This document shows positions 1 to 18,255 of a stretch of 23,795 nt of DNA, piece after piece; within the stretch, counting starts at the first letter, position 1; each line of letters starts with the position of its first letter. The notes under the pieces were generated by a model. It worked only from the letters and a program-made list of their open reading frames with translations. It did not search any database and was not told where the DNA came from. Made by a program: the position numbers and the translations under genes. Location: positions 1 through 23,795 of the forward strand of contig JBBSJT010000024.1 in assembly GCA_038257035.1 (NCBI GenBank), given 5' to 3'. Origin of the DNA: Chlamydiia bacterium (GTDB lineage Bacteria > Chlamydiota > Chlamydiia > Chlamydiales > Parachlamydiaceae).

Positions 1-138
1 GGATATTCAGGATCGCTCCGCTTCGCTTCGCTGGCCAAGATCAGGCAGGATAATATCAATCTCTAGTATATCCTTAAGGTTGATATTATCCTGCCTGATC
101 TTGGCCAGCGAAGCGAAGCGGAGCGATCCTGAATATCC
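1..138. repeat. Long palindrome (CAGGAT-module family), truncated by the window edge
   Basis: 1-59 is the exact reverse complement of 80-138, with a 20-nt loop. Homologous to the hairpin at 8369-8543. Confidence 0.95.
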
Positions 139-198
139 TGAAAAAAAATCATAAACTTTATAAAGAAAAAACTACCCCCTCTTTTCCTCTCTTGCTTT

Positions 199-223
199 TC
201 TCTGTGCCCTCTATGTTTAAAAA
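199..223 (-). repeat. Orphan half-element of the modular palindrome type (CACAGAG-like units)
   Basis: Minus strand reads TTTTTAAACATAGAGGGCACAGAGA, the same T-run + AAC + 8-9 nt ...AGAG unit layout as the arm at 17875-17900. No partner arm inside the window. Confidence 0.45.
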
Positions 224-244
224 GAAGTTCAACTTTCAAGGCCT

Positions 245-892
245 CTAAAGGTCGAAGTTGAAGATGTCAAACCAGATGGCGGCAAGCAAAAATGAGCCAA
301 AAGCAATCGGTCCATAAGGTGCATAATGTCCCACGTACAAAGTATAAGCAGAGATTGCTAATAAAATGAGCGGTGGTAACAATTTTTTGAGGCCAAGGCG
401 TCTGTTTGTTAAAAAAATTGAGATAATTGCAAAAGAAATTCCAAGAAGCCAACCATAAGATCCAGCTAAACTAAAAGCTGAACCGGATCCGCCAATGATC
501 GGGTCCGTATAAAGAAGTTGCACAATATTTTTTGTACTTTCAACATCAATATTTGGATGATGATTTGGTAAATCGAGAATATAGCCAACAGCAATTCCTG
601 CAGTTGAATCAAAAACAAGGTAGCAAACTGCAAATAACCAAATAAAAAATTTGCTTACAATGCCAAAAAAATTGTTTTGACGAAAAGTTAAAAGCATTGC
701 CGCAAGGGCCACTGCTCCGAATAAAAAGGATTGCAAAATATGAAGTTCCTTCCACCAACTGGACATATGATGCAGTCCTTCGTAAACATTTTTTGAAAAT
801 CCTGATGGATGATTCCACTCCAAGAGGACAAGTAAAAAAGGAACAACCATCATAACAAATCTTCTAAACCAGATAAATAAAACTTTTTCCAT
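245..892 (-). CDS. Hypothetical multi-pass membrane protein
   Basis: 215-aa ORF with about 6 hydrophobic segments. No family recognised. Confidence 0.75.
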   Translation of the reverse strand: MEKVLFIWFRRFVMMVVPFLLVLLEWNHPSGFSKNVYEGLHHMSSWWKELHILQSFLFGAVALAAMLLTFRQNNFFGIVSKFFIWLFAVCYLVFDSTAGIAVGYILDLPNHHPNIDVESTKNIVQLLYTDPIIGGSGSAFSLAGSYGWLLGISFAIISIFLTNRRLGLKKLLPPLILLAISAYTLYVGHYAPYGPIAFGSFLLAAIWFDIFNFDL

Positions 893-1035
893 GATTAAAC
901 CACCATTTTAATAAAGTTAACAAATACCAAATATAAAGATTAATCTAAAATGTTTTATTAAGATCTTGATTAAATAGGTGAGTTTGTGCAAAATAGGAGT
1001 GTAAAATGTGTAATACTTAAAAAAAAAGGAATATC

Positions 1036-1362
1036 ATGAAATCAATATACGCTCTATTAACGCTTGCTTGTTTATTTACTTTTGCTTCAACAACAAATTT
1101 AGAAGCAAGACACCATACTCACTTTGTTACTCGAACTTACTTTGCTCCTGCGCCACAATATGCTGTGCAATATTACCCTCAGCCGGTTTATGTTCAGCAA
1201 CCAGTTTACGTGCAACAACCGGTTTACGTGCAACAGCCCGTTCAAACTGTTGTTTACAGCCAACCTGTTTGCCGCCAAGTAGTTGTGCGTGAGCGATGCA
1301 ATCCTGCAGCCGGTTTGATCACTTCATTTGCCTTAGGCTTAGGACTTGGTTTACTTCGATAA
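1036..1362 (+). CDS. Small exported protein with QQPVYV repeats and a hydrophobic Gly-rich C-terminus
   Basis: AAGGA RBS, signal peptide MKSIYALLTLACLFTFASTTNLEA, and 18-bp tandem repeats at about 1180-1242. Confidence 0.8.
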   Translation: MKSIYALLTLACLFTFASTTNLEARHHTHFVTRTYFAPAPQYAVQYYPQPVYVQQPVYVQQPVYVQQPVQTVVYSQPVCRQVVVRERCNPAAGLITSFALGLGLGLLR

Positions 1363-1377
1363 GTCATAAAAAATTTA

Positions 1378-1419
1378 ATCAAAATCGGGTTAATATTATA
1401 ATATAGGCCTGATTTTGAT
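1378..1419 (+). terminator. Stem-loop downstream of 1036..1362, possible terminator
   Basis: ATCAAAATCGGGTT ... GGCCTGATTTTGAT inverted repeat 16 nt after the stop codon. Confidence 0.45.
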
Positions 1420-1466
1420 CGATCGAACCCCTGGGCTTTGACGAAGTTTTCCGGATTTACAGTGTT

Positions 1467-1630
1467 CTAGTACATCATGTCGTTTAAATTGATGGGTAAT
1501 AGCTTTAAATTTTGCCTCTAGTTTAAGAATTAAATTTCAATCCATGCATTGTTGTAGGTCTGAATTTAATTTTTAAAATAGAGGTGAAAGGAAAGTAGTA
1601 CCTATCAGTTTAGATGACATGGTGTACTAG
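1467..1630. mobile_element. Palindromic MITE-like element with CTAG at both ends
   Basis: CTAGTACATCATGTCGTTTAAATTGATGGGTAATA pairs with TAGTACCTATCAGTTTAGATGACATGGTGTACTAG. A second inner stem spans about 1510-1588. CTAG at 1467-1470 and 1627-1630 may be a target duplication. Confidence 0.75.
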
Positions 1631-1631
1631 C

Positions 1632-1960
1632 ATGCCAACAATAGGAAGCAACCTAATGAAACGTTTGAACACTTAAGCAGATAATGTCTTAACCCACATT
1701 CCGCAGAATTTAAAAAAATTGATATTTCACAAATCAGATCTTCAAACAAAGATTACCTTCTAAATAATCCAGTATTATATAGAAGAATTATTCGATTAGA
1801 AGAGTTCTGATCTAAATGAAATTAAAGATGGACCGGTTAAAAAAAACTTTTTCAATCATAGATTCTTATGAATTTGATGCAAAGCTTATTTCAACAAAAT
1901 GTAGATCAAAACTCTTGTTATCTATACGAGTTGCCATCATAGAAGAGGCCCTACAGTTAC
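1632..1960 (+). pseudogene. Decayed copy of the 5' part of the fibre-protein gene (3318..5147)
   Basis: Collinear DNA similarity to about 3295-3750, including the RBS (ATGCCAACAA.AGGAAGCAAC), TTCCGCAGAATTTAAAAA.ATTGATATTTCA and GATTCTTATGAATTTGATGCA. Contains deletions and frameshifts. ORF 1816..2046 retains IIDSYEFDA. Confidence 0.85.
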
Positions 1961-2067
1961 AATTGCAAAAGGTTTTAACCTCTTTTCCGGAGGGTAATGG
2001 GAAACCCGACAGCACAGGGGGATGCATTTCTGCTTGCAGGAGTTAATTTTTTGTACCGTAGCCTTTA

Positions 2068-2229
2068 GGCCAATGTCATTAACTTAAAGAAATTTTTATG
2101 ACACTGCGAACGCCAATCTCAATTGCTTTGCTCCTCGTTAATATAGCGACAGATATTAACTCGTCGCAAATCAATTGATCTTAGCATTCTCGTTGTCCTA
2201 TAATTTTTCTTAAGTTAACGACATTGGCC
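2068..2229. mobile_element. 162-bp palindromic MITE-like element with TTTA direct repeats
   Basis: TIR GGCCAATGTC(A/G)TTAACTTAA matches at 19/20, and imperfect symmetry continues to the centre. TTTA at 2064-2067 and 2230-2233. Confidence 0.8.
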
Positions 2230-2329
2230 TTTAGGCTGGCTAACATCCTTTAAAAATGCTATTTCTGCTAAGCATCGCTAATAGTTCGACGCATAATCCA
2301 GAAATTAATACATCTCTATGTGTAACTAA

Positions 2330-2785
2330 TTATTTCTTTACTATTTCTAATATTTCTTCCGCCTTTTTAGATTTATTATTTAATTCATTAAAGTCTCCGC
2401 GCAAAATTTTAAGAGCATATTTTTCCCAATCGATTTCCTTTCTAGTTCTAACATTTAAAGCTCTAAAAATAGGAAGAGGGGGACACCATCCTTGAACTGC
2501 ATGTTGAAAAAGAAAAATAAGGACAATAGAAGGGAGAAATAGCCAATAAGTATTAACAAATGCTCCCAGTAATACTCCTATGAATGCCAAAATTGAAGCA
2601 TTTGTTTCTAGCCATCGCTCAATACTCCATTCATTTTCAATAGTTCTTATCCTATTACTAATTTCCTGATTACTTCTTTCTGAATAATTTTGAATGCTTT
2701 TTAGGATTTTTTGATCAATAGCTGCATTTGAAGAAGTAGAAGTATGAGAGCGAACTCTATCATCATTTTCTAGGTTCATAAACAT
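2330..2785 (-). CDS. DUF2892 / YgaP-like membrane protein
   Basis: EWSIERWLETNAS, two TM segments, QHAVQGWCPPLPIFRALNVRT and EKYALKILRGDF match my recollection of this family. Confidence 0.75.
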   Translation of the reverse strand: MFMNLENDDRVRSHTSTSSNAAIDQKILKSIQNYSERSNQEISNRIRTIENEWSIERWLETNASILAFIGVLLGAFVNTYWLFLPSIVLIFLFQHAVQGWCPPLPIFRALNVRTRKEIDWEKYALKILRGDFNELNNKSKKAEEILEIVKK

Positions 2786-2834
2786 CCTTATGTTTAATTT
2801 ATAAAATCAAAAATAATTTTTAATGATCTTTTGG

Positions 2835-2960
2835 GTTTTGCATCTCAATGCGTTAACCCTTTTTAAGCACTTATGGTATTCCTCTACAACCCATTGTCTT
2901 CTCTTTTCCATCTCTAACTACCATTCGTCGTAAAGATCGTTGACTCAGTCTTTTACAAAA
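2835..2960 (-). pseudogene. Possible IS4-family (IS50/Tn5-like) transposase remnant
   Basis: Minus strand reads ...KRRQWVVEEYHKCLK, then after a frameshift G*RIE. This resembles the Y-x2-R-W-x-I-E-E-Y-H-K-x-L-K-x-G-C-x-I-E motif. Confidence 0.45.
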
Positions 2961-3317
2961 ATCTATTGACTATCAAGGTTCTGGCCTACCTATATTCTTT
3001 GTAGTCTAAAAACAATAAAAAGCAAAGCCTTAAATGAAACGAATGCCAGTGAAAAACCAAACTTAACCCTTTGAAATAATCAGACAGATGACAAAAGAAA
3101 ATGATTCCGAAGAATGTAAGTATCATCTCTTAAACATACCTTTTTTAAGCGTACAAAACATAATTCAATAAACGGGAGTTACGTTTTGAGTATTTTCATT
3201 TTATTTTCTTGTTAACCCTAACGCTCTCCCCTTTTTAATGTCAAAAAATTTATTGAAAATATTTATTTGACAAGGTATGACTATGCTCCAAGTAATGCCA
3301 ACAAGAGGAAGCAACTA

Positions 3318-5147
3318 ATGAAAAATTTTGAACGATTAAGACTCACATTATCTCTAATTATCTGTGGATTGTGTTTAAATCCACTTTCCGCAGAATTTAA
3401 AAACATTGATATTTCAGAAATCAGATCATTCAACAAAGATGAACTTCTAAATATTCCACTTCTAGATAGAAGAATAATTCGATTAGATGAGTCAGACAAA
3501 CAGTTAACTGATCTAAATGAAGTTAAAGATGAACCCATTAAAACACTTATCAACAATGGATTATTATCTTTGGTTTGGGAAGATCAGGAAAAAACATTTA
3601 TAATCATCGATTCTTATGAATTTGATGCAGAATTGCTTTCAAATAATGATTTCGATGAAACCTTAAAATTAAACTTTGAATTTCTTGGAGCAACTGATTA
3701 CGCATGTCATAATAGAATAGAAAAAAAAGGAGCCACCGGTCCGACAGGTGCTACGGGAACTACCGGAGGAATCGGTCCTACAGGTAATACCGGCCCCGGT
3801 ACTACCGGTCCTACAGGTACCACCGGTCCTACAGGTAGCACCGGACCTACAGGCACTACCGGACCTACAGGCACTACCGGTCCTACAGGAAACACCGGTC
3901 CAACAGGTGTGGGATTGACCGGCGCTACAGGTACAACGGGTCCAACAGGTACACAAGGTTTATTAGGACCTACTGGTCCAACAGGAACCGTTTCAGAAAA
4001 TGCCTGGCTTTTGACAGGTAATGCAGGAACTACTCCTCCAACTAATTTTGTTGGTACAACAGATAACCAACCACTTGTCATAGGTGTCAACAGCATACCT
4101 TCGGTACGTTTTACAGAAACAAGTCAAATTGAACCTCTTAATAGTTTAGCCTCTGTTTATGTGGGAAATGGGGCTGGAGCTTTAAATGTAGGAACCAATA
4201 ATACATTTATTGGCTTTGAAGCGGGTGACGTTAATACAGCCGGCTCTAGCAATACTGCCTTAGGTCATTTTGCACTTACTGAAAATACAACAGGCAACAG
4301 TAACACCGCAATTGGAGCCTCTTCCCTTCGCAATAATAATATCGGATTCAACAATAATGCTTTGGGCATAAATTCCCTTTTAAATAATATCAGCGGCAAT
4401 AATAACACTGCCATAGGAAATGGCACCCTTGGCAATGTTACAACAGAAACTAGCAACGTAGGTCTTGGAACAGGAGCTAATGTTTTTGCAGGTGCTAATA
4501 ATGCTACAGCTCTTGGCCAATCAACAATTGCCGCAAGTTCAGCTGTTGCTGTAGGATCCAGTGCTTCAGCTTCAGGACAAAGAGCAATAGCTATAGGGAG
4601 TTCGGCAGGAACAAGTACTGCAGGAAACAACGACACGATTTCCATAGGTAGTGTTGGGTTACCTGTCGCTGGGGTAATTAACATTGGAACACTTGGTACT
4701 AACATCGATTGTTACATTCAGGGAATTTATAATTCAACTGCGTTAGCACCCACCCTAGTCGTTAATATACAGGCAGACGGTAAGCTCACGACATTTACTT
4801 CCTCAAAAAGATTTAAAAATACAGTTAACACCCTATCAACAGATATTTCAAAAAAAATCTATGATATGCGTGTTGTTGAATTCTTTTATAATGGCGATTC
4901 TTCCAATAGAACTAATTATGGAATGATTGCAGAAGAAATGGAGCAAGTATTACCGGAAGTTGTTGTTTATGAGCCAGAATCTAATATTCCTTATAGTATT
5001 AGTTATCCATTAATTCAGCCGTTGATGATCGCTGAATTACAACAGCATGAAATGCAATTACAAAAGCAAAATGCAATCATTGCAAATCAGCAAAAGATTA
5101 TTGATTTGTTGATCGAAAGATTGGAAGCTTTAGAAAAGGCCATGTAA
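3318..5147 (+). CDS. Secreted trimeric fibre/adhesin-like protein: signal peptide, collagen-like GxT repeat, YadA-head-like beta-roll repeats, peptidase S74-like intramolecular chaperone and coiled coil
   Basis: GAGGA RBS before ATG 3318 (preferred over TTG 3267). Signal [25 protein letters not shown], (GPT/GTT)n, repeated NTA(L/I)G, C-terminal SSKRFK...YGMIAEEM...[13 protein letters not shown] and a heptad tail. Confidence 0.85.
3729..3989 (+). repeat. Collagen-like Gly-X-Thr coding repeat
   Basis: About 27 G-X-Y triplets, mostly GPT/GTT, with two interruptions (GP, GV). 9/18-bp DNA periodicity (ACCGGTCCTACAGG). Confidence 0.95.
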
Positions 5148-5156
5148 TTCCACACC

Positions 5157-5188
5157 GTGCGGGGTACCCCCGCACTTCTTCTTTTTTC
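5157..5188 (+). terminator. Rho-independent terminator
   Basis: GTGCGGGG-TAC-CCCCGCAC followed by a T-rich tail, 10 nt after the stop codon. Confidence 0.75.
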
Positions 5189-5224
5189 TGCCACTAAAAA
5201 AGTCTATGCTTACGTTAGCGTAGT

Positions 5225-6181
5225 CTAAAAGTCGTTGCCGTCCATGTTTTTTAATTGAGGTCTTAACTCATCCATTTTAGGCCCTATAAAAGTATAAAGC
5301 TTTTCATCAAAATAAAGCGAAAGATCAGGAAAACTTTTCTTAAGCCATATTCTAAATTTATAAGTCTTATTAAACATTTCCTGGGCTTGTACCTCAATGT
5401 CTTTATAACTTTCTTTTTGAAGAAATTGACCGACATCTATATGGATGGGCATTCCATCAAGAACTCCGGTGTTTTGCATTAAGGCATGATCATTATCACC
5501 AAGACCTCTGTTATATTCTGATACTAGGGTGTCAAAAAGAGTATCAAGTAATTTTTTTGTCTGATCCAGTTGACTCATTTTCATTTGTTTCTCGATCGTA
5601 TCTGTCAACATAAAGGCACGTTTTTGAATCAAAAATTCATAATCATCAATCGCTATATAATGTTCCATTCCCATTTTATCGGTAATTAAAACTTGTCTTT
5701 GTAAAGTATTTGTTTTATTTAAATGCACATATACAAGGCCGGTTTCAGATTTTAACTCATCATGGGCAATTTTCCAACTCTTGAAAATATTTTCTAATTT
5801 TATTCTTTTTTTCTCAATTTTCATCAGGCGATAATCATTCATGGCGGGAATAAATGAAAATAAATTAAGCCATTCTTGAGGTGTAAATCGCTGATATTTA
5901 AAAAATTTTAACACATATTTACCATCTTCGCTTGCAAAAACGTAAGATTGGCAACCTTTTCCAAGATATTCAAATTTTTGTGATAAAATAGAATCGATCT
6001 GATTTTTTTCTTCCGGTGTGATACTTTTTGTCTCAAATCTTGGATCAAATTTTAAATTAGAGGCAATATTTGAAGTTGTAAAGCCATCGGTCACATAATA
6101 ATAGACTCGACCAACACCATAAATACCACTTATGGCTAAACAAAACCAAATAGATAGTTTAAAAAAAGTATTTTTTGACAT
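5225..6181 (-). CDS. Membrane-anchored hypothetical protein with protein-kinase-like motifs
   Basis: N-terminal hydrophobic helix, then LGKGCQSYVF, YVLKFF, DNDHALMQN and IHIDVG in kinase order. Start is ATG 6181 or GTG 6190. Confidence 0.7.
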   Translation of the reverse strand: MSKNTFFKLSIWFCLAISGIYGVGRVYYYVTDGFTTSNIASNLKFDPRFETKSITPEEKNQIDSILSQKFEYLGKGCQSYVFASEDGKYVLKFFKYQRFTPQEWLNLFSFIPAMNDYRLMKIEKKRIKLENIFKSWKIAHDELKSETGLVYVHLNKTNTLQRQVLITDKMGMEHYIAIDDYEFLIQKRAFMLTDTIEKQMKMSQLDQTKKLLDTLFDTLVSEYNRGLGDNDHALMQNTGVLDGMPIHIDVGQFLQKESYKDIEVQAQEMFNKTYKFRIWLKKSFPDLSLYFDEKLYTFIGPKMDELRPQLKNMDGNDF

Positions 6182-6256
6182 ATAACTCACTTATTTTTTT
6201 TAAAAAAGTGCATCATACTGATTTCAAACTTTTTATTCCAACGTAATCGGTTTTTA

Positions 6257-6265
6257 TGCTATAGT
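6257..6265 (+). promoter_or_regulatory. Candidate extended -10 element for fabI
   Basis: TGCTATAGT about 33 nt upstream of the ATG. Pattern match only, in AT-rich DNA. Confidence 0.3.
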
Positions 6266-6297
6266 GGATTACTTAATCAATTGATAACGGAGGTTTT

Positions 6298-7200
6298 ATG
6301 CTAGCAATTAATCTTAAAGGAAAGAAAGCCTTTATTGCGGGAGTTGGCGACGATAAGGGATATGGCTTTGCTATTGCAAAAGCTTTAGCTGAAGCCGGAG
6401 CTGAAATCATCATCGGTACATGGACACCTATTGCAAAAATATTTTTAACGAGTCTTGAAAACGGAAAATTTGATGAATCGCTAAAATTATCTGATGGTTC
6501 TATCATGAAAATTTCCAAAGTTTATCCTCTGGATGCCACATTTGATACAATGGAAGATGTTCCGCAAGAAATCCGCGAAAATAAACGCTACAAAGATGTT
6601 ACAGAATATACAATTACCGAAGTGGCAGCAGCAATTGGTAGAGATTTTGGAAAGATAGATATTTTCGTTCATTCCCTTGCAAATGCTCCTGAAGTTCAGA
6701 AACCACTTCTTGAAACAACAAGAAAAGGGTACCTTGCAGCTTTAAGCTCTTCCTCTTATTCATTCGTTAGTTTATTGGCACATTTAGGCCCATTCATGAA
6801 TACAGGTGGCGCTGCCCTTTCATTAACGTATCTTGCCGGTGAAAGAATTATTCCGGGTTATGGTGGTGGAATGAGTTCAGCAAAAGCTGCACTTGAAAGC
6901 GACACACGCGTATTAAGTTATGAAGCCGGCCGTAAATGGAACATCAGAGTCAATTGCATTTCAGCCGGACCCTTGGGAAGCCGTGCTGCAAAAGCCATTG
7001 GTTTCATCGACAAGATGATAGACTATTCATTTATAAATGCTCCTATTTCAAAAGATTTAAAAGCCGAAGAAATTGGTGCTGCTGCTACATTTTTATTATC
7101 TCCTTTAAGTTCTGCTATTACAGGTGCAATTATTCATGTCGATAACGGTTTGAACAGCATGGGTGTAAGTCTTGACAGCCCCATATTTATGGAAAATTAA
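6298..7200 (+). CDS. fabI: Enoyl-ACP reductase (chlamydial/plant-type)
   Basis: [45 protein letters not shown] and [25 protein letters not shown]. Confidence 0.97.
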
Positions 7201-7230
7201 GAAAAAAAATAAAACAAGGAATGTTAATCA

Positions 7231-8190
7231 ATGATTACTAGTTTAAACGGCTATAGGGACGAACTTTTTAATAAGTCCCATAATGATGCCGCACTTGATG
7301 TGCAGCTAACAAATTGGCTTGGGCATAAGGTCGTCACATTGATTACCATTCCTGTAAACCTTACGTTATTTACAGCTTCTTTATCTCTTTGCACAATTTC
7401 ATGCTTAACCATAGGCACTGCAAGATTTGCCACTCATTTTTTCACCCTTGGAAATTTTCAATTTCCCCTATCGACCGGATTCAGCACACTCATGACAAGT
7501 GCATTCGACGGATTTGTTGGCCTTGGGGTTAGTGCAGGTCAACTTACTTACGATAGCTTTAATTTAGTTTTTCAAAGTTATCGCCTTGCACGATTTGTTA
7601 TTAAAGAACTGCATCTTGATGGGATTATTTCTGTAATCGTTAAAAAAGTTGCGGAGGTTGTTCAATTTTGTTTTAGAAAAATGATAGAATTACTTAATGC
7701 TGGATTTACGCGTATCTGTGAAGGATTTACAAAAGCTTCAGAATCTGAAATTTCAGTGGAAAACTTCGATCAGAATCTACCCTCCGCTCTTAAAAAACTT
7801 AACGAATGCGTCAATGAACATCGAATTAGCTACAATGAACGAGGGTTTAACACAATTTTAAAACATTATGCCTGGTCAGTTCCTGCAATTATTTGTAATA
7901 CACCTGTCTTTATAATATCAGGATGCGCATGTGTCATTTTGGGAACACTCTTTATTGCCAAGGCCACTGTTTATACCTTAACCAATATTAATATTGCCAT
8001 TCCAACCTATACCGGCAAGGCTTTTGCTATATCTAGGGATGCAGGATTAAACGCAGGAGTAGTTCTTGCTGTGGATATTGCCGATGTCTTTGTCTTAAGC
8101 TATAAGGCAATTGATTTCCTTGGGGTGACAAAAGCTGCTGCCACAGTCTTTCAATGCTTAGCATACGCCAAAGAAGCCTTCTTCCACTAA
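7231..8190 (+). CDS. Hypothetical hydrophobic protein with an internal duplication (Inc-like candidate)
   Basis: 319-aa ORF with AAGGA RBS and no signal peptide. Two homologous hydrophobic halves. Confidence 0.7.
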   Translation: MITSLNGYRDELFNKSHNDAALDVQLTNWLGHKVVTLITIPVNLTLFTASLSLCTISCLTIGTARFATHFFTLGNFQFPLSTGFSTLMTSAFDGFVGLGVSAGQLTYDSFNLVFQSYRLARFVIKELHLDGIISVIVKKVAEVVQFCFRKMIELLNAGFTRICEGFTKASESEISVENFDQNLPSALKKLNECVNEHRISYNERGFNTILKHYAWSVPAIICNTPVFIISGCACVILGTLFIAKATVYTLTNINIAIPTYTGKAFAISRDAGLNAGVVLAVDIADVFVLSYKAIDFLGVTKAAATVFQCLAYAKEAFFH

Positions 8191-8315
8191 AAAACATTTG
8201 TAAACCCAAAAATATTAAAAATACGATTGAACTGAAAAGAAATATATATAAAATTTTCAATTTCAAAAAAGCTATATCATATATTGGATTTTTTTTCTCG
8301 AAGTAGAACAGTATA

Positions 8316-8604
8316 CACTGGTGTTACTTCAAACTGAAAAATTTAGATCTCTACAATTTATCACGTCATCGATTTTTAACAGGATATGCAGGATCGCTCC
8401 GCTTCGCTTCGCGGCAGGATCGCTAAAAGCGGCAGGATATTATCAACTTCTAGGATATATTAGAGGTTGATAATATCTTGCCGCTTTAGCGATCCTGCCG
8501 CGAAGCGAAGCGGAGCGATCCTGCATATCCTGTTAAAAATCGAAGATGTTATAATAAGTAGTTTTGAGAACATTGCAAATTTTCACTTCCAAGTAGCATC
8601 AGTA
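8316..8604. mobile_element. TA-flanked MITE-like shell (~30-bp TIRs) carrying a CAGGAT-family hairpin
   Basis: TA|CACTGGTGTTACTTCAAACTGAAAAATTT ... AAATTTTCACTTCCAAGTAGCATCAGTA|TA. Same TIR type as 17843-18113. Confidence 0.7.
8369..8543. repeat. Long palindrome (CAGGAT-module family)
   Basis: About 78-bp near-perfect arms, TCGATTTTTAACAGGATATGCAGGATCGCTCCGCTTCGCTTCGC... and its reverse complement. The loop is homologous, in inverted orientation, to the loop of 1-138. Confidence 0.95.
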
Positions 8605-8615
8605 TATACTCTTAT

Positions 8616-10061
8616 CTAAGAAACCTCTCCATGTAATGTAAGGGTGGCTTTGATGATGCAGTCGGTGTCGCGTCTGATGGTGCGCAAGAAAATCGAGTAA
8701 TCAAAAGCCGCAAAACGATCTTTGCCCTTAGTTGCAATTTGTGAGGGTCGGTTTCCACGCATGAAATGGCCCATGAAATGACCGTTACCCTTTACAATTT
8801 CAAAAAGCAGATCAAATTTAAAACCATCAAGAATTACTTCAACTTTTTCTCCGATTTGAAATGTTGTAGCTTTTATCCCTTCAATCCTAACATCCGTTTT
8901 ATCAAAAAGATCAAAGTAAAAAGCCACTTCGCGACATTCCTCCTTATCTTCAAGCTCCGGAACTTCGGCCAAAGAAAAAAGAAATTCATGGGTTTTGTTT
9001 TTCTCCGTAAAAGCAATCTTTTGACTATTTGACCCTTCAATTGTCAAAGAATGTAACCTGTTAACATTGCCAAAATTAAGTTTATAAGGAGCAAATCCTT
9101 TGTCTTGAGATGCTTTATTAGAATCTTGCTCAATAAAGGCAAAATTATAATTTTCAAACTTAAAGCACTTATACGATTGCTCGTTAATCTTACCTTGCCA
9201 AAAAAATGGCAAATGATTGTCGATTTTGTATTCGCAAGGCTGAATGAGTGAAGCATGAAGATGAATAACACTTAAGGTTAAAGCACGCTTTGAGAACTTT
9301 TTTGTTAAATAGCCCATGAATAGATCGTATAAAGTAACTTCCGGCTCAAAACCTGCCTGATATTCTAAAATATTAGGGCCTGCATAGCAATTTAAATCCG
9401 GGTGCCAAGTTTTGTTAAGATGATCCAAAAACTTTTGACTAAATTTCATGTCAACCATCTGTGAGGCAATAATTAAATCACCCAAGTGTTTTGGTATAAA
9501 CCAGTCTCTTGTTACATCGTTAAATTCAACAAGCCTTTTTTCTCCGTCGTTTTTAAGCTCGTTTATATTAAAAAGGTTGCCCACTGCTTGCAAAGCTGCT
9601 GCCAATTTGATGCGCATAAAATAGGGCGGATTTTTTTCGGTTGAAATTTTAATGCTATAGTTAACAAGGTCAAGTAATGCCTTTTCCAAACGCTCCCTTA
9701 AGGGGTTTCCGAGAATTTGATGAAAGTCCTTGTAAATCCAATATAAAGGTGCAATTAAGGAGATTGCCAAGTAATGATCTTTGCATTCCGGATATTCATG
9801 CAAATAGACAGGAAACTGTCCGTCAGAACTTGCAAAATGGAGAAGCTTTTCAACTAAAACCCTTGCTCTTGTGATGTTTTCAACCGTACGTGTTTTAAAA
9901 AGGGAAAGTGCAAACAAAAAATTCTCTAAAACAGGAATTGTTAAATGTACATCATCTTGTAAGGCATGATACTTTAAGTGAAGAAAATCTGTTTGCAAGC
10001 TAATGCGTTTTTCCCCCGCATTTAAACAAAGATCGTTAATTTTTTTTAAATATTCATCCAT
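8616..10061 (-). CDS. Conserved-looking hypothetical protein (~481 aa)
   Basis: Long ORF. Start moved to ATG 10061, just after the upstream SDR stop, making it the third gene of the folB operon. No function recognised. Confidence 0.8.
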   Translation of the reverse strand: MDEYLKKINDLCLNAGEKRISLQTDFLHLKYHALQDDVHLTIPVLENFLFALSLFKTRTVENITRARVLVEKLLHFASSDGQFPVYLHEYPECKDHYLAISLIAPLYWIYKDFHQILGNPLRERLEKALLDLVNYSIKISTEKNPPYFMRIKLAAALQAVGNLFNINELKNDGEKRLVEFNDVTRDWFIPKHLGDLIIASQMVDMKFSQKFLDHLNKTWHPDLNCYAGPNILEYQAGFEPEVTLYDLFMGYLTKKFSKRALTLSVIHLHASLIQPCEYKIDNHLPFFWQGKINEQSYKCFKFENYNFAFIEQDSNKASQDKGFAPYKLNFGNVNRLHSLTIEGSNSQKIAFTEKNKTHEFLFSLAEVPELEDKEECREVAFYFDLFDKTDVRIEGIKATTFQIGEKVEVILDGFKFDLLFEIVKGNGHFMGHFMRGNRPSQIATKGKDRFAAFDYSIFLRTIRRDTDCIIKATLTLHGEVS

Positions 10062-10065
10062 CGAT

Positions 10066-10776
10066 TTATAACCTAAGTCCTCCGGCAACTTCAATATTTT
10101 GGCCGGTTATGTAATGATTGTTTGGGTTTAATAAAAATAAGACAACATCGGCAACCTCTTGTTTAGTTCCGAATCGTTTCATTGGTAGTTCCTTAGCATT
10201 TATTGGAGCATCAAAGGAATCTTCAAGCATTCCCGGTGAAACCATATTGACAGTCACATCAAATAAGGCAAGATCCTTTGCAAGGCTTCTTGTAAGCATT
10301 AAGAGCGAGGCCTTCGTCATGCTATAGACCATTGAATAATTTTCAGCCCTACCATGATCGATTCCACATACGCCAATATTTACAATACTTCCCTTTTCTT
10401 CTTTAATTGAAGGTATTATAGATTGAATCAGAAATAAGGGTGCAAATAGATTGGTCATAAAAAGAGCGTTCGTTTCGTTAAAAGATGTTTCTAAAACAGG
10501 TTTAACCAAATAATTACCCACGTTATTCACAATATTTTTTATTTTTTTAAAGGGTTTTAGCAAATCAATAAATGCTTTCATCCCCTCAAAATTAGAAAAA
10601 TCACCAAAAACAGCCTCTGCTTTAACTCCAAGAGTATGACACTCTTTGACAAGTTCGAATGCTTCCTTTTTGCTTTTATTGTAGTGGATCAGAAGGTCTT
10701 GTTTATTTTTTGCAAGTTTTAACACTATTTCTTTTCCAAGATTTTTAGCGCCACCTGTCACAAGAGTTTTACTCAT
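10066..10776 (-). CDS. SDR oxidoreductase, FolM/pteridine reductase-like
   Basis: TGGAKNLG, IHYNKS, NNVG, YSMTK (YxxxK) and VNMVSPG. Directly downstream of folB. Confidence 0.8.
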   Translation of the reverse strand: MSKTLVTGGAKNLGKEIVLKLAKNKQDLLIHYNKSKKEAFELVKECHTLGVKAEAVFGDFSNFEGMKAFIDLLKPFKKIKNIVNNVGNYLVKPVLETSFNETNALFMTNLFAPLFLIQSIIPSIKEEKGSIVNIGVCGIDHGRAENYSMVYSMTKASLLMLTRSLAKDLALFDVTVNMVSPGMLEDSFDAPINAKELPMKRFGTKQEVADVVLFLLNPNNHYITGQNIEVAGGLRL

Positions 10777-11136
10777 TTAAAGACTCCCCCCTTCAAGTTC
10801 AACAACCGCATAATTTGCAAGTGGCAGAGCATTTGGTTTTTTTATTCTAACAAAAGCCCATTTAATTTTGTATTGGTTCATCAAAGTTTGGATGAGTTCA
10901 AAAGCAAAAGTTTCTAACAGTCGATAACCTTTTAAACTTAATTCTTTACACAAATTTCCAAGCACTTCATAACAAATTGTTTTTTGAAAATCATCATCGC
11001 TCGCGGCTTTAGAAAAATCGTATTCAACGCGAAGATCTAAATAAATTGTTTGATTATTTTTCCGCTCTTCCTCGTGCACACCAATGATGCAGTCGATTTT
11101 ATAATGATCAAAGCCGATTTTTCCAATAAACTTCAC
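10777..11136 (-). CDS. folB: Dihydroneopterin aldolase
   Basis: IIGVHEEERKNNQ, TICYE, LLETFA and VRIKKPNA. GTG start with GAGG RBS. Confidence 0.93.
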   Translation of the reverse strand: MKFIGKIGFDHYKIDCIIGVHEEERKNNQTIYLDLRVEYDFSKAASDDDFQKTICYEVLGNLCKELSLKGYRLLETFAFELIQTLMNQYKIKWAFVRIKKPNALPLANYAVVELEGGSL

Positions 11137-11199
11137 TTTAACCTCTTGCTTGCTTCTTAAAAATAGTTTATGATCCGCATCTTTAACTTATGGGTTCTT

Positions 11200-11652
11200 A
11201 TGATAAAGTATTTGCGCATTTATTTCCTTCTAATGTTTTTACTTTCTAGTTTAACTCCGCTTTCTTTAAGCTCGCAAGAACGCGTTTTAAATAAGAGGAC
11301 AGAAGAAGACATTCCGCTACCGCCCTCTTTAAGGGAAAGTTCAAAAAAAGAGTTACCTCGAGAAGATAATTTCATGAAAGAGTTTATCAAGATGTTGCTG
11401 ACGCTTGCCTCAATAATTACCATCTTGCTCCTTATAAGCTACTTATTAAAAAAGTTCATGAACACACGCATCCAGCAGATCAACGAATCAAGCTTGATCA
11501 AAATTTTGGAACGACGAACAATGAGCCCCAAAAGCTCCGTTTATATCTTAGATATAAAAGGGCGCCAGGTTGCTATTGTGGAGTCCCATAATGCGCTATT
11601 ACTACTTCCTGAATTACCCCAAGATGAATATGAAGAAGATAATAACAAATAG
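11200..11652 (+). CDS. FliO-like membrane protein
   Basis: Signal-like N-terminus, one TM segment, then IKILERRTMSPKSSVYILDIKGRQVAIV, resembling the FliO cytoplasmic beta domain. Start uncertain (11170 or 11200). Confidence 0.7.
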   Translation: MIKYLRIYFLLMFLLSSLTPLSLSSQERVLNKRTEEDIPLPPSLRESSKKELPREDNFMKEFIKMLLTLASIITILLLISYLLKKFMNTRIQQINESSLIKILERRTMSPKSSVYILDIKGRQVAIVESHNALLLLPELPQDEYEEDNNK

Positions 11653-11662
11653 AGAGATTAAA

Positions 11663-11836
11663 ATGAGTTATTTAAAATTGAAAAAACATGTTTTTTTGAT
11701 TGTTGTACTGTGCAGCCTCACAAGCTGCTACCGCATGCCAACAGATCATGATTACTCGCTTGTGCCTAATGTGAACAACCCTGACGTCACAAGAGGCAAG
11801 CCGGGCAGCTTAAGTGCCCCCAGCATGGCCTTTTAG
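11663..11836 (+). CDS. Small lipoprotein (57 aa)
   Basis: ATG 11 nt after the previous stop. Basic N-region, hydrophobic core and lipobox LTS-C. Confidence 0.7.
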   Translation: MSYLKLKKHVFLIVVLCSLTSCYRMPTDHDYSLVPNVNNPDVTRGKPGSLSAPSMAF

Positions 11837-11892
11837 GACCATAGCCTCTTATATTAATACGAAGAAACCGCTGGAAGCTCACAAGCTTTTAG

Positions 11893-12021
11893 ATTTTTTA
11901 ACGCAAAGAAGCTGCAAAAGGCGCAAAGGCGCAAAGATAAAAAGATCTTTAAAAGTGTATAGAGTTTTTTTAATTCTTTGCGCCTTTGCGTCTTATTGCA
12001 GCTTCTTTGCGTTAAAAAAAT
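11893..12021. repeat. Long palindrome (CGCAAAG-module family)
   Basis: TTTTTTAACGCAAAGAAGCTGCAAAAGGCGCAAAGGCGCAAAGA ... TCTTTGCGCCTTTGCGTCTTATTGCAGCTTCTTTGCGTTAAAAAA. Related to 13932-14090. Confidence 0.92.
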
Positions 12022-12203
12022 ACCAACCTCAATAGATTCCTAGCGGTCTAAAATGTATTTACTGTCTTCGTGTTTAAAAACTCAGAAACTAAAGAAATAA
12101 TTATGCGTACGAATCAAGTGGATCGGATTATGCAGTCCAAGATGGCATTTGGGAGTGGTCAAGGAAATATATGCTGATTTTTGGATATTTTTTTTGAAAA
12201 TTG

Positions 12204-12232
12204 TTGCTATTCTTATGATTTTCATCTAAGAT
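12204..12232 (+). promoter_or_regulatory. Candidate sigma70/66 promoter for the csrA operon
   Basis: TTGCTA-N17-TAAGAT about 110 nt upstream of csrA. Pattern match only. Confidence 0.35.
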
Positions 12233-12340
12233 TGACAACTAATGCCCCACCCTGTCACATGAACGACAGATGGTATAAATAAAACTTGAGATTACACTCC
12301 AAGTAAAAAGAACATTAACTTTCTCTCATAGGCTTGATTT

Positions 12341-12607
12341 ATGTTAGTTTTAACAAGAAAAAGGGAAGAAAAAATTACAATCGGCAATAACCCCGGCATT
12401 GTAATTACAGTTTTAAAAATTCAAGGCGATAAAGTTTCTATAGGAATTGAAGCCTCACCTGACATACCTGTTTTTCGTACAGAGCTTCTCACACGAGAAA
12501 GACCTCAAAAAACCGAAACCGCTTCTCATAATCAAAGTGAAATCGCAATTGAAAGCTTACAAATCGATCTTGAAAAACAAAAACTTCATTTAAACCACAA
12601 AAATTAA
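12341..12607 (+). CDS. csrA: Carbon storage regulator CsrA with a C-terminal extension
   Basis: MLVLTRK..EKITIG...ITVLKIQGDKVSIGIEASPDIPVFRTEL. Confidence 0.92.
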   Translation: MLVLTRKREEKITIGNNPGIVITVLKIQGDKVSIGIEASPDIPVFRTELLTRERPQKTETASHNQSEIAIESLQIDLEKQKLHLNHKN

Positions 12608-12617
12608 GTAAGATCAG

Positions 12618-13106
12618 ATGAAAAAACCCTTTATTGAACTTAACTTAGAAAATCTACTTAAACATTTTAAGAAAACAAAAGAAAATGCAGTTTTACAAAC
12701 TGAGACCGATCAAATATTAATTACTGTTAAATTTGATAAAGTTGAATTTCCTCTATTTGTTCGTATCACAGAAACCCAAGATTTGCTACAATTGCTTGCA
12801 TTTTTCCCGTGTAACATCAAAGCGGGATGCGAATCTGACATGGCGCGTACCTTACACCTTTTAAACAAAGAACTTGATATTCCGGGATTTGGAATGGACG
12901 ATTTTAATGGTTTGGTTTTTTATCGCTGCATGATTCCTTGCCCTGATTTGCACTATCACGAAGCCGTCATCGATAAATACCTCGATGCTGTAAAAATGAT
13001 TTGTCAATCTTTTCTTCCCTTAATTTTTGCAATGAGTCAAGGAAACATGAAATTTTCAGAGATTTCAAACAAGCTTGGCGATTTAATGCAAACAGCAGAT
13101 AAGTAA
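12618..13106 (+). CDS. CesT/YbjN-fold type III secretion chaperone (CT260/Mcsc-like)
   Basis: ETDQI...FPLFVRI...LLQLL..FP...ARTLHLLNKELDIPGFGMD...VFYR. Adjacent to dnaQ, as I recall for C. trachomatis CT260-CT261. Confidence 0.8.
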   Translation: MKKPFIELNLENLLKHFKKTKENAVLQTETDQILITVKFDKVEFPLFVRITETQDLLQLLAFFPCNIKAGCESDMARTLHLLNKELDIPGFGMDDFNGLVFYRCMIPCPDLHYHEAVIDKYLDAVKMICQSFLPLIFAMSQGNMKFSEISNKLGDLMQTADK

Positions 13107-13110
13107 AAAA

Positions 13111-13824
13111 ATGACATTTAGACCTATATATTACGATACAGAAACCACCGGAATTAAAACCGACAGGGACCGTATTGTTGAACTTGCGGCTTATGATCCT
13201 ATCAACGATCGCTCATTTGAAATGTTAATTCATCCAGGCCTTCCAATTCCACCGGAAGTATCTGCCATTCATCATATCACGGATGAAATGGTTGCAAATT
13301 CCCCATCTTTTGCACAAGCTGCTGTTGAATTTGTAAAGTTTTGCGAAGGGAATGTTATTTTAATTGCCCACAACAATGATAATTTTGACTTACCCATGAT
13401 GCGAAATGAATTTGCCCGTCATCAAGTCATCATGCCGGCGGAATGGAAATTTTTAGACAGTTTAAAATGGGCAAGGAGGTACCGTCCTGATCTACCACGA
13501 CATACACTTCAATTTTTAAGAGAAATCTACGGCATTGCAGCAAATAATGCCCATAGGGCCTTGGATGACGTAAAAGTTCTTTATCAAATGTGTAGCCATA
13601 TGTTTGATGATTTGTCAATCGATGATATTTTCCTTTTAATCAACAAACCTTTTGATATTCTTCATATGCCTTTTGGAAAGTATCAAGGAAAACCCTTACA
13701 AGATGTCCCTGCAGATTATTTAAAGTGGCTTTTGGCTAACGGCGCACTCGACAAACCAGAGAATCAAGAACTTAAGCGCTGCTTCGGCAAACACCCCAAC
13801 TACCTCAGCCTCCTAAAATCATAA
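13111..13824 (+). CDS. dnaQ: DEDDh 3'-5' exonuclease (DNA Pol III epsilon-like) with a C-terminal MPFGKY domain
   Basis: YDTETTG, AHNNDNFD and HRALDD. C-terminal MPFGKYQGKPLQDVPADYLKW. Confidence 0.88.
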   Translation: MTFRPIYYDTETTGIKTDRDRIVELAAYDPINDRSFEMLIHPGLPIPPEVSAIHHITDEMVANSPSFAQAAVEFVKFCEGNVILIAHNNDNFDLPMMRNEFARHQVIMPAEWKFLDSLKWARRYRPDLPRHTLQFLREIYGIAANNAHRALDDVKVLYQMCSHMFDDLSIDDIFLLINKPFDILHMPFGKYQGKPLQDVPADYLKWLLANGALDKPENQELKRCFGKHPNYLSLLKS

Positions 13825-13873
13825 ACAGACTCACTTTCATCAAGATGGGAACTATTTTCCAAAGTGGTCTGTT
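13824..13873. other. Short inverted repeat after dnaQ (terminator or mini-element)
   Basis: AACAGAC(T)CACTTT ... AAAGTGGTCTGTT. Confidence 0.45.
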
Positions 13874-13876
13874 GAA

Positions 13877-14169
13877 ACCAGAAGAGCGCGAAGAAGCTCG
13901 CTTAAAAGCGTGAGAAGAAAAAAGTTAGTGTAGCTTTTTTTAACGCAAAGGCGCAAAGACGCAAAGAAGGACTTTGCTAAAATCTATTGCTACTAGTAAC
14001 CCTAGCAATATGCAAATATGAATAAAGTACGTTATAAAAATTAAATTTCGCTTTTCTTTGCGCCTTTGCGCCTTTGCGTTAAAAAAAGCTCTAATGGCTT
14101 TATATTTCCGCGCTTTTTTAAGCGCGCTTCTTCGCGTACCTTCGCGTCTTTCTTCGCGCTCTTCGCGGT
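13877..14169. repeat. Nested palindromes: outer CGCGAAG-module arms, inner CGCAAAG-module arms, innermost short IR
   Basis: Outer arms about 13877-13910 and 14110-14169. Inner arms 13932-13968 and 14054-14090. Innermost TATTGCTA/TAGCAATA at 13985-14010. Confidence 0.88.
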
Positions 14170-14242
14170 AAGATGGTCCACAAAAACTAGATACTAAAAT
14201 CTTCTCTGTGGTGAAAAATAATTAATGGGAAATAGGTGTGAA

Positions 14243-15046
14243 ATGCAGAAGACGAAATTGATGGGGATATTAAATGTTACCCCAGACTCATTCTTTGATC
14301 GAGGCGAGGCTTTTGATACAACTAAAGCCATTGAGAAAGGTCTTAGAATGTTTGATGAAGGAACTGATATTCTTGACATCGGTGGCGAATCGACGCGTCC
14401 CGGTGCGACTCCTGTAAGTGCTGAAGAAGAAATTTTGCGTGTTATTCCCGTAATTTCAGCGTTAAAGTCAAAAATTAATATCCCTATATCTATTGATACA
14501 ATGAAACCTCAAGTTGCTAAATTGGCAATTGATGCCGGAGCATCCATTATAAACGATGTAACAGGTTTTATAGATATTGAAATGGTTGAACTCGCAAAAA
14601 AAACGGGTGTCCAAATTGTAGTCATGCATATGCGAGGAACCCCCCTTAACATGCAAAATGATTTACATTATGAGGGTGGCATCGCTGAAGAAATCCTTGT
14701 TTTTTTTAAAGAGCGAACTACATTTTTAACATTAAAAGGGATTAAAAAAGAGCAGATTATTTTAGATCCTGGTATAGGCTTTGGAAAATCGGTTGCTGAT
14801 AATCTCAAAATCATACACAATTTGTCTAGGTTTAAGGAATTGGGGTTTGCCGTTTTACTTGGAATTTCACGTAAGTCATTTATGGGTAAGATTTTAAACA
14901 ATAAACCTTGCTCCTTATTGCCTGCAACAATTGGGTTGAACAGTGTCGCAATTATGAATGCTGTAGATATAATTCGTGTGCATGATATAAAAGAGCACCG
15001 AATGTTAATAGATTTAATGCATAATTATATGGAAGAAACAAAATAA
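14243..15046 (+). CDS. folP: Dihydropteroate synthase
   Basis: MGILNVTPDSF, DIGGESTRPG, DPGIGFGK, SRKSF and IIRVHD. ATG 14243 has an AGGTG RBS (alternative start 14225). Confidence 0.97.
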   Translation: MQKTKLMGILNVTPDSFFDRGEAFDTTKAIEKGLRMFDEGTDILDIGGESTRPGATPVSAEEEILRVIPVISALKSKINIPISIDTMKPQVAKLAIDAGASIINDVTGFIDIEMVELAKKTGVQIVVMHMRGTPLNMQNDLHYEGGIAEEILVFFKERTTFLTLKGIKKEQIILDPGIGFGKSVADNLKIIHNLSRFKELGFAVLLGISRKSFMGKILNNKPCSLLPATIGLNSVAIMNAVDIIRVHDIKEHRMLIDLMHNYMEETK

Positions 15047-15048
15047 GC

Positions 15049-17096: not shown

Positions 17097-17099
17097 TCT

Positions 17100-17813
17100 A
17101 TGCCAAAAGAACGTTTTTTTCTCGAATCCCCTCTTAAAGAAGGTGAACTGATCTCTATTCGTGACGATGAGTTTCATCATTTAAATGTGATGAGGCCAAA
17201 AGTCAAACAACAAATCGAGATTGTTAACGGTAACGGTGAGCTTGGCATTGCCACACTTGAAACTTTAGAAAAAAAACAAGCAACACTAATTATTGAAAAA
17301 GTAATTAGAGAACCTTTTGAAACCTTTAAAGTCATCTTGGCGCAAAGCTTTTGCCGTCCAAATCGACTAGATTTTATTCTAGAGAAAGCAACGGAGCTTG
17401 GTGCTACAGACATCTGGCTATTTCCAGGAGTGCATAGCGAAGCGAAGGATTTGAACGATCATAAGCTTGCCCGCATGCGTGCCATTACGATTTCTGCCAT
17501 GAAGCAATGCGGAAGGCTTTATCTTCCAAAAATCACTTTAAAACCAACCTTGGAACATTTTGAAAAAAGTCCCTATTCATCTTTTTTTGGGGATGTGGAT
17601 CAAAATGCTCCAAACTTTCTTGAATGTTGGAAAAAGGAAAGTCAAAATGAAGGTGTTTTATTTTTTATTGGTACAGAATCTGGTTTTAGCGATGCAGAAA
17701 CAAAAAGACTTTTGAGCCTTGGTGCAAAAGGCGTTAAAATTAACAAAAACATCCTACGCACCGATACTGCCGCCATCACTGCCTTGAGCTTAATCGGCAG
17801 TAGGCTTTGTTAG
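17100..17813 (+). CDS. rsmE: 16S rRNA m3U1498 methyltransferase
   Basis: HHLNVMR, ILEKATELG, AMKQCGR, IGTESGFS and NILRTDTA. Confidence 0.95.
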   Translation: MPKERFFLESPLKEGELISIRDDEFHHLNVMRPKVKQQIEIVNGNGELGIATLETLEKKQATLIIEKVIREPFETFKVILAQSFCRPNRLDFILEKATELGATDIWLFPGVHSEAKDLNDHKLARMRAITISAMKQCGRLYLPKITLKPTLEHFEKSPYSSFFGDVDQNAPNFLECWKKESQNEGVLFFIGTESGFSDAETKRLLSLGAKGVKINKNILRTDTAAITALSLIGSRLC

Positions 17814-17842
17814 TACTTTCAGAGATAAGTAGAACCAGTATA

Positions 17843-18113
17843 TACTGATGCTACTTGAAAGTAAAAAGTTTCAGATTTTTTCAACGCAGAGGCGCAGAGA
17901 CGCAGAGACGCAGAGAAGCGCGCTAAAGCGCGAAAAGAATAAGAAAAGTTAATCGTTTTTCGTGGCTTAGAAAAGAATTTAATTTGTTGTTTTTCGCGCT
18001 TTAGCGCGCTTCTCTGCGCCTCTGCGTTGAAAAAATCATATACTTTTAAATAAGTTTCTTAACAGCATACTCTTAATTTTTTTTAAATTTTTCACTCAGA
18101 AGTAGAACCAGTA
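17843..18113. mobile_element. TA-flanked MITE-like shell (~30-bp TIRs) carrying a CGCAGAG-family hairpin
   Basis: TA|TACTGATGCTACTTGAAAGTAAAAAGTTT ... AAATTTTTCACTCAGAAGTAGAACCAGTA|TA. Confidence 0.75.
17874..18037. repeat. Long palindrome (CGCAGAG-module family)
   Basis: GATTTTTTCAA(CGCAGAG unit x4)AAGCGCGCTAAAGCGCGAAAA ... TTTTCGCGCTTTAGCGCGCTT(CTCTGCG unit x2)TTGAAAAAATC. Confidence 0.92.
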
Positions 18114-18117
18114 TATA

Positions 18118-18255
18118 TACTTTCTACTCTCAAATGAAAAAGAAATTAGACCTCTACAATCTATAACAACTTGCATATCCTGAAAAATTTAAGGTGCTAA
18201 ATTAATAGATTTATTAGTATTGCAAGTTTTAGTTTTAAAAACTGTAGAAAAATAT
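18118..18255. mobile_element. Degenerate copy of the 8316-8604 element lacking most of the hairpin
   Basis: ATTAGACCTCTACAATCTATAAC resembles 8341-8364, TGCATATCCTG equals 8522-8532, and ATTGCAAGTTTT resembles 8572-8583. Confidence 0.55.

Follow-up and report, generated by a model that had tools for sequence, protein, structure and literature searches.

How do two homologous hairpins of one genome come to differ by the same changes on both of their arms? The question is raised by two long hairpins in the stretch of DNA analyzed here, 23,795 nucleotides (nt) in length and called the window below, which is the entire contig C24 of a draft assembly of a Chlamydiia bacterium of the family Parachlamydiaceae (2.37 Mb, 36% G+C, 210 contigs, 95.8% complete; other contigs are numbered likewise and loci are given as contig and position). 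The initial annotation had proposed that one arm is copied from the other, by fold-back synthesis, template switching or intramolecular conversion, and saw in this a clue to how the elements are made. We arrive at another reading: the hairpins belong, as copies without a gene, to a large and modular family of palindromic repeats, the mirrored differences are inherited states of sub-families, each arm is templated by itself and not by its partner, and small cassettes carrying a nuclease gene are probably autonomous relatives of these repeats. To this account as a whole we give a probability of about 0.65.

Element 1 (1..138) is a hairpin of what we call family A and belongs to its TATTCAG sub-family; it carries a rare TGGCCAAGATCA block on both arms and is truncated by the contig end. 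Folded as single-stranded DNA it pairs without interruption at 62 positions and leaves a loop of 14 nt (-79.2 kcal/mol, z = -22.8 against shuffled sequence), and in the inverted-repeat finder its arms are perfect (59/59). Element 2 (8358..8554, core about 8382-8530), also of family A, belongs to the TATGCAG sub-family and has two GATCGCT units per arm; its core at 8382-8530 folds at -87.5 kcal/mol with z = -20.6. As all other palindromic features of the window, both are given without strand. The two elements align with 79-80% identity in either orientation, and every mirrored difference that had been listed between 1-138 and 8369-8543 is present in the sequence, the folds of both hairpins being far beyond those of shuffled sequence. 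At the outer base TATTCAG is opposed to TATGCAG, a T/G difference in CAGGATAT(T/G)CAGG found on both arms, and at the inner base GATAATATC is opposed to GATATTATC, a single A/T in GATA(A/T)TATC on both arms of each element. In the middle block TGGCCAAGATCA is opposed to GGCAGGATCGCTAAA(A)GC, again on both arms, where element 2 has AAAA in its left and TTT in its right arm. A similar pair is formed by two hairpins of a second family, family 0, for which an insert in both arms had been reported at 11893-12021 and its absence at 13932-14090. We see this insert as the AAGCTGCAA(A/T)AAG block: the hairpin at 11894..12019, built of 8-nt CGCAAAG units (z = -14.2), has it on both arms as AAGCTGCAAAAG, and it is absent from the hairpin at 13932..14090, which has three CGCAAAG units per arm and a long loop (z = -7.8 for the fold of 13937-14085). 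It also holds that differences of several bases which are identical on the two arms cannot have come from independent hits, and the TGGCCAAGATCA block in particular needs at least one transfer of a block between arms.

The mirrored states are not confined to these elements. Each of them recurs on 5 to 47 arms: we counted TATTCAG on 22 arms and TATGCAG on 47, the middle block of element 2 on 14 and CGCTCCGCTTCGCTTCGC on 20, GATAATATC on 46 and GATATTATC on 19. The AAGCTGCAA block of family 0 is present on both arms in 8 further copies, in which the arms often differ from each other within the block. Since the mirrored states recur on many arms, the two window hairpins belong to different sub-families. 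Also within a single sub-family of 15 copies most mirrored variants are alleles common to many copies and not private events. We propose that the mirrored differences are sub-family states which arose in a few founder elements and are inherited through the copying of whole palindromes.

If arms were made from their partners, the two arms of one element should be sisters, as the initial annotation had predicted. Of the 36 complete copies of family A we compared the arms of 34, leaving aside a remnant of 55 nt and a composite of 335 nt, and trimmed off the search motif and the loop. An arm was on average 0.827 identical to its own partner and 0.889 identical to the best-matching arm from another element; the overall mean was 0.675. 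Of 68 arms, the own partner was strictly closest in only 17 and tied in 1, while an arm of another element was closer in 50, so the expectation of sister arms failed. Between elements, arms of the same side were 0.676 identical and arms of opposite sides 0.674. When the comparison was extended to six families, using elements of at least 90 nt none of which touched contig ends, the own partner was strictly closest for 109/348, 43/122, 20/66, 9/34, 16/30 and 9/18 arms.

A finer view is given by the 15-copy sub-family of family A, the members of which have exactly 115 nt between their termini and 57 stem pairs. Changes in this set comprise 53 one-sided, 16 mirrored complementary and 2 double non-complementary ones, and 95.4% of the cells of the alignment are paired, compared with 93.4% in shuffles. 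These pairing figures, together with stems that are far better conserved than loops, are what would be expected if mirrored changes were independent compensatory mutations selected for pairing in a hairpin of RNA or single-stranded DNA, without any copying from arm to arm, and compensatory changes are described as common in the hairpins of the repeats named REPINs (Bertels and Rainey, PMC3116915, accessible part of the text). However, compensation could not produce identical multi-base blocks on both arms, and the one-sided changes (27 transitions, 26 transversions) give no sign of a wobble preference, 16/53 of them yielding a G.T pair where about a quarter would be expected. The whole window has no match in Rfam at gathering score, on which ground the reading as an RNA family was rejected, and no U-run follows the stem on either strand, which led us to reject an intrinsic terminator; both strands read as a T-run, stem, loop, stem and A-run, and the T-run and the A-run pair with each other. 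We consider compensatory mutation as the source of the mirrored differences to be very improbable.

Recent changes were followed in pairs of closest copies, with at least 88% identity and each element used once, which gave 26 pairs. In all of them together there were 132 one-armed and 9 mirrored differences, 122 arm mismatches common to both copies, and 24 others. The 18 pairs with tandem-unit arms (11 of family 0 and 7 of family A, summed by hand) account for 97 one-armed differences, 9 mirrored ones and 33 shared mismatches. Insertions and deletions (indels) in these 18 pairs comprised 19 one-armed events, one of them of 8 nt, 14 shared asymmetries, two of them of at least 5 nt, and 8 mirrored events, all shorter than 5 nt. 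Among indels of at least 5 nt there was thus 1 one-armed, 2 shared and 0 mirrored. The orientation of the loop agreed with that of the shared asymmetry in 5/5 informative pairs, out of 8 examined. Asymmetry can also be followed beyond pairs: the complex variant CACTAAAGCCAAG, in place of CACGATAAGCAGG, is present on one arm at C2:37956, C42:10895, C151:3897 and C4:8166, with different flanks at each locus and the consensus kept on the other arm. The right arm at C1:19256 has three extra 16-nt units, and arm lengths differ by at least 5 nt in 8/34 family A elements. Still, both arms have the same number of GATCGCT units in 29/34, compared with a shuffle mean of 19.4, and 0/5000 shuffles reach 29.

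Arms therefore diverge mostly independently after copying, and their mismatches, unit-sized indels included, are passed to daughter copies. As arm mismatches are transmitted and changes are mostly one-armed, each arm is templated by itself and not by its partner. This excludes propagation in which an arm is rebuilt from its partner, and sets the ceiling for correction between arms at roughly one event for every ten one-armed changes. The symmetry seen at the level of families may be kept because only elements with well-matched arms continue to be copied, and new symmetric variants would be only occasional, either through rare conversion between arms or through replacement or insertion of a central segment.

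The hairpins of the window are a small sample of what is present in the genome. With a simple inverted-repeat finder we found 389 long hairpin loci which cover 67,522 bases, or 2.9% of the genome, and the same finder found 0 hairpin loci in the genome shuffled in 500-nt blocks, which indicates that the hairpins are not due to chance. All-against-all BLAST groups them into families of 180, 78, 37, 18, 15 and 9 loci. Hairpins are 100 to 300 nt long, gene-less and with inverted termini, with about 70 copies in family A and 180 loci in family 0. In both families the arms are arrays of short tandem units, continuous over 45 to 80 nt; family A, the termini of which are CAGGATATGCAGGATCGC, combines units led by CAGGAT, 9 to 17 nt long, with a tract of CGCTN pentamers, and family 0 has 8-nt units with CGCAAAG, CGCAGAG, CGCGAAG, CACAGAG or CAGTGAG. 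Arms made of CGCAGAG units gave plus/minus pairs of matches in 14/18 other genomes searched of the same bacterial family. Such repeats are abundant, making up about 3% of the genome, and common to genera of Parachlamydiaceae, and a literature search that paired Parachlamydiaceae and similar names with the terms palindromic, MITE or REP gave no description of them.

Nesting is another feature of this architecture, and it bears on the possibility that the replacement, insertion or deletion of a central segment, by insertion of a nested palindrome or by a conversion tract spanning the loop, alters both arms at once. Several types of AT-rich outer modules enclose different inner hairpins, and elements of family B, which consist of multiple hairpins, sit within family A termini in many copies. 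At C4:8040-8260 the family A element C4:8166 is interrupted at its loop by an unrelated palindrome (GGAGTGTCCGAAATTTTG ... CAAAATTTCGGACACTCC), a direct case of a palindrome nested at the centre of another. One replacement is nevertheless insufficient for the window elements, which differ at the outer base, in the middle block and at the inner base and are identical between these positions, and the middle module CGCTCCGCTTCGCTTCGC is common to sub-families which differ on both sides of it. As the main source of the mirrored differences, central replacement is in our opinion improbable, if not to the degree of compensatory mutation.

The abundance of the repeats leaves a mark on the assembly. 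Family A is represented by 36 complete copies, 36 unpaired left and 36 unpaired right termini, and about 61/72 of the unpaired termini are no more than some 260 nt away from a contig end. This clustering indicates that a large share of the assembly breaks is due to family A, about half of which is broken at contig ends in this draft. Arm identity could then be attributed to an artefact, a fold-back of the assembly graph at palindromes, the more so as element 1 with its perfect 59/59 arms stands at a contig end, about 61 contig ends fall within family A copies, and one contig from a sequencing-run assembly (X2) switches strand at 17908/18018. The contigs of X2 reach all 30 bins of 1-18400, but they are short and end at hairpins, and no weight is given here to the gaps between them. 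Against it, 36 copies are assembled through with imperfect arms, and related hairpins are present in other assemblies, among them genomes of 4 and 7 contigs. In addition, the left flank, left arm and loop of element 1 are carried independently by contig C111: the left arm and most of the loop are found again at its 3' end, next to a different left flank, and the exact overlap read from both sequences is 77 nt. An artefact as the cause of arm identity has in our opinion almost no chance of being right.

As for what might move the hairpins, the genes found between arms of the same types encode GxxExxY proteins, a family of PD-(D/E)XK nucleases (PDDEXK_3). A profile search found two such genes in the genome, with 138 to 140 bits. 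The one on C7 is bracketed by arms of CCGCGAAG units (family 0), and the one on C17 has a decayed arm upstream and, within about 10 nt downstream, a CGCAAAG hairpin of the AAGCTGCAA sub-family. Of 31 genomes, this one together with 30 relatives, 19 contain the family, and a single genome has up to 67 matches. Inverted tandem-unit arms (score of at least 25) surround 8/15 GxxExxY loci from 14 genomes, compared with 3/522 control open reading frames (ORFs) of 100 to 250 aa from this genome. In a genome of another genus, G005, the exact 18-mer terminus of family A is part of the arms which bracket a GxxExxY gene. The autonomous, full-length relatives of the hairpins may be such small cassettes, with the same arm types around a GxxExxY nuclease gene, and the nuclease would mobilise the hairpins; this uncharacterised nuclease is a concrete candidate for the mobilising enzyme. 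A search of PDB sequences with the C7 protein gave no match, and in the literature searched GxxExxY is mentioned in 3 papers, never in the title or abstract. Two observations concern these cassettes in other genomes. At a locus on contig C1 of G005 (positions are those of the locus) the GxxExxY ORF at 1477-2055 meets no stop ahead of the right arm and continues through the array of ATCCTG units as a His/Pro-rich tail, and there are two tandem copies of the left arm (1271-1360 and 1377-1466). G029, of the same order and another family, has 67 matches to the GxxExxY model in a 1.9 Mb genome, many of them C-terminal fragments of identical length, a pattern which suggests massive proliferation and decay of cassettes.

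Several results weigh against the account given above. Roughly one arm in three is still nearest to its own partner. In the 15-copy set, the 16 mirrored cells fall in 8 pairs, compared with shuffle means of 4.4 and 4.7, 0/2000 and 0/500 shuffles reaching the observed 16, and arm heterozygosity amounts to 55 sites where random pairing of arms would give 76.8 (F = 0.28). In the closest pairs there are 9 mirrored differences where one or fewer would come from independent double hits, a chance figure which is our own estimate and not a simulation. Some symmetrising process, either arm-to-arm copying or selection for pairing, must therefore exist and act rarely. Copies which are assembled through are probably biased to imperfect arms, so that arm identity may be underestimated. 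On the side of the nuclease, the search of this genome gave no gene of this kind flanked by CAGGAT arms.

Such results could also be attributed to copying from arm to arm within an element (template switching, fold-back priming or intramolecular conversion) as the main source of mirrored differences, at least at the founding of sub-families. A case in point is the TGGCCAAGATCA block itself. At C17:4671 and C67:7196 the block, seen as TTGGCCAAGATCAGG, is present on one arm only, and the loops of these two elements are in opposite orientation, while element 1 has CTGGCCAAGATCAGG on both arms, with a private C shared by both arms where others have T. A block which is one-armed in two elements and two-armed in element 1 requires some transfer between arms, either within an element or between elements. 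Mirrored changes are also in excess over chance, transversions, for which there is no G.T intermediate, make up about half of the mirrored events, and the mechanism is established elsewhere (PMC8604942, PMC8794818 and PMC7202029, as far as the accessible parts of these papers go). On the other hand, such events are rare (9 mirrored against 97 one-armed), none of the mirrored indels in the 18 closest pairs reaches 5 nt, and asymmetries are inherited, as seen at 33 sites, in two unit-sized indels and in the variant shared by four loci. Loops are concordant in all of the five informative pairs, with no inversion of the spacer there; the discordant loops of C17:4671 and C67:7196 would equally be given by ordinary recombination between arms, and conversion by the arm of another element gives the same end state as copying from the partner. 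What stands of the proposal that one arm is copied from the other is therefore a rare process, visible in the mirrored excess and in the TGGCCAAGATCA case, and not the way in which the elements are made. As the main source of mirrored differences we consider arm-to-arm copying unlikely, and somewhat less so than central replacement.

Going back to the inheritance of sub-family states through whole-palindrome copying, it can be combined with rare copying between arms in a more far-reaching hypothesis. The hairpins and the GxxExxY cassettes might together form an undescribed class of mobile elements, in which the nuclease would read the unit "words" on inverted arms and new words, and with them new sub-families, would be founded by intramolecular template switching, the element with the two-armed TGGCCAAGATCA block being an example caught in the act. 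This is speculative, and we regard it as a doubtful but not far-fetched extension of the account.

Tolerance of hundreds of long palindromes is a related question. SbcD had 0 matches in the genome at E <= 0.001, with a control search positive in 13/14 known genomes, and for SbcC there were only weak matches to the N-terminal ATPase (29.7 bits against a cut-off of 478.5). Judging from these gene searches, absence of the hairpin nuclease SbcCD would help to explain such tolerance.

The window contains further repeats. Around element 2, at 8307..8613, lies a composite palindromic unit in which AT-rich outer modules flank a GC-richer inner hairpin; over this stretch it matches its own reverse complement with 80% identity, and its flank modules are found again beside other copies. 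A second composite unit, at 17828..18128, is formed by outer modules and a hairpin of family 0 (17864-18047), which is built of CGCAGAG units and has an GCGCGCTAAAGCGCG sub-hairpin inside. Copies of it elsewhere in the genome are 81-86% identical over about 280 nt, and its arms have matches in other genera. The AT-rich outer modules of the window (8290-8380, 8533-8613, 17828-17880 and 18085-18128) are of about five types with AGTAGAACCAGTATATAC-like ends in common, and there is no fixed combination of the types with each other or with an inner hairpin. At 2060..2237 there is a different imperfect palindromic repeat of 178 nt, 76% complementary, with an almost identical second copy at C14:22945-23296 inside a family B element, which makes it another dispersed repeat. 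The window also encodes, at 3267-5147 on the plus strand, an ORF of 626 aa that combines collagen triple-helix repeats with a Peptidase_S74 (endosialidase chaperone) domain at the C-terminus, a pairing typical of phage tail fibres or spikes.

Among known systems, the repeats can be compared first with repetitive extragenic palindromic (REP) sequences, their hairpin-forming doublets (REPINs) and the REP-associated tyrosine transposases (RAYTs). REPINs are multi-copy palindromes in which the two sides of the hairpin often carry compensatory changes (Bertels and Rainey 2011, PMC3116915). The likeness, as far as the accessible part of that text goes, lies in intergenic multi-copy palindromes which form long hairpins and evolve as populations of sequences within a genome, and in a single-gene partner of each family which is flanked by the same arms. 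The differences are that arms of families A and 0 are continuous arrays of 5- to 17-nt units and not doublets of short REPs, and that the gene between such arms encodes a PD-(D/E)XK-type GxxExxY protein and not an HUH/Y1 enzyme. Family B of the same genome does fit the inverted-doublet design of REPINs. IS200-type Y1 transposase (Y1_Tnp) genes are present at seven loci (C29:9113-9457, C105:2280-2621, C119:363-704, C7:10608-10945, C25:9991-10328, C48:13969-14277 and C68:12300-12539), and none of the seven is flanked by CAGGAT or CGCAAAG-type arms. Most are flanked by small REP-like hairpin arrays of their own in inverted orientation, and the C105 gene by arms of family B (CCTAGGGCGTTGCCCTAGG and similar ones); such arms are found as gene-less doublets too. 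The seven loci look like several RAYT/REPIN-like systems in one chlamydial genome. Both of the two proteins scanned were above the cut-off of 55 bits of the IS200 model (62.6 and 87.3 bits) and below the cut-off of 80 bits of the REP-tyrosine-transposase model (23.8 and 29 bits); a search of PDB sequences with a Y1 transposase gave no match.

Template switching at quasi-palindromes, which homogenises the arms of inverted repeats and inverts the spacer (PMC8604942, PMC8794818, PMC7202029), resembles what we see in that, in the accessible parts of these papers, both arms are altered in one step, indels included, and it could explain the rare mirrored changes and the two-armed TGGCCAAGATCA block. 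Here it is at most minor: the partner arm is mostly not the closest and new differences are mostly not mirrored (9 against 97), asymmetries are inherited, and in 5/5 informative pairs the spacer is not inverted. Inverted arrays of heptamers, GGGAATC in Xanthomonas and GGGGA(T/C)T in Nostoc (Rehm et al. 2015, PMC4692102), are intergenic arrays of 7-nt units, mostly about four units long, with 70 to 75 convergent array pairs per genome which could form stem-loops. They differ in that they are treated as G-quadruplex-forming simple repeats, with no reading as mobile elements, arm comparison or associated gene in the accessible part of that text.

The remaining comparison is with non-autonomous elements. 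BOX, Correia and ERIC are bacterial MITEs (miniature inverted-repeat transposable elements), and foldback elements of Drosophila have tandem sub-repeats in long inverted arms. In common with them, the hairpins are non-autonomous and multi-copy, with inverted termini, a variable number of internal modules and sub-families. A difference from MITEs is that no DDE transposase sharing the termini was found, the termini of the unrelated insertion sequence genes not having been compared, and that no target duplication was defined. No DDE_3 (IS630-type) or TnpB gene was found in the genome, and the other transposases are a few unrelated rve, DDE_Tnp_1 and IS110 genes. A search for unoccupied T-run/A-run frames in this AT-rich genome defined no empty site, and genomes of the same genus match only the coding flank, with about 72% identity and no hairpin there, and are too diverged for orthologous empty sites. 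What the hairpins do share with MITEs is the presence of many copies with inverted termini and no coding capacity alongside gene-carrying elements with the same termini, on C7 for family 0 and in G005 for family A, and judging from these shared arms the nuclease of such cassettes is a candidate for the enzyme that moves the hairpins.

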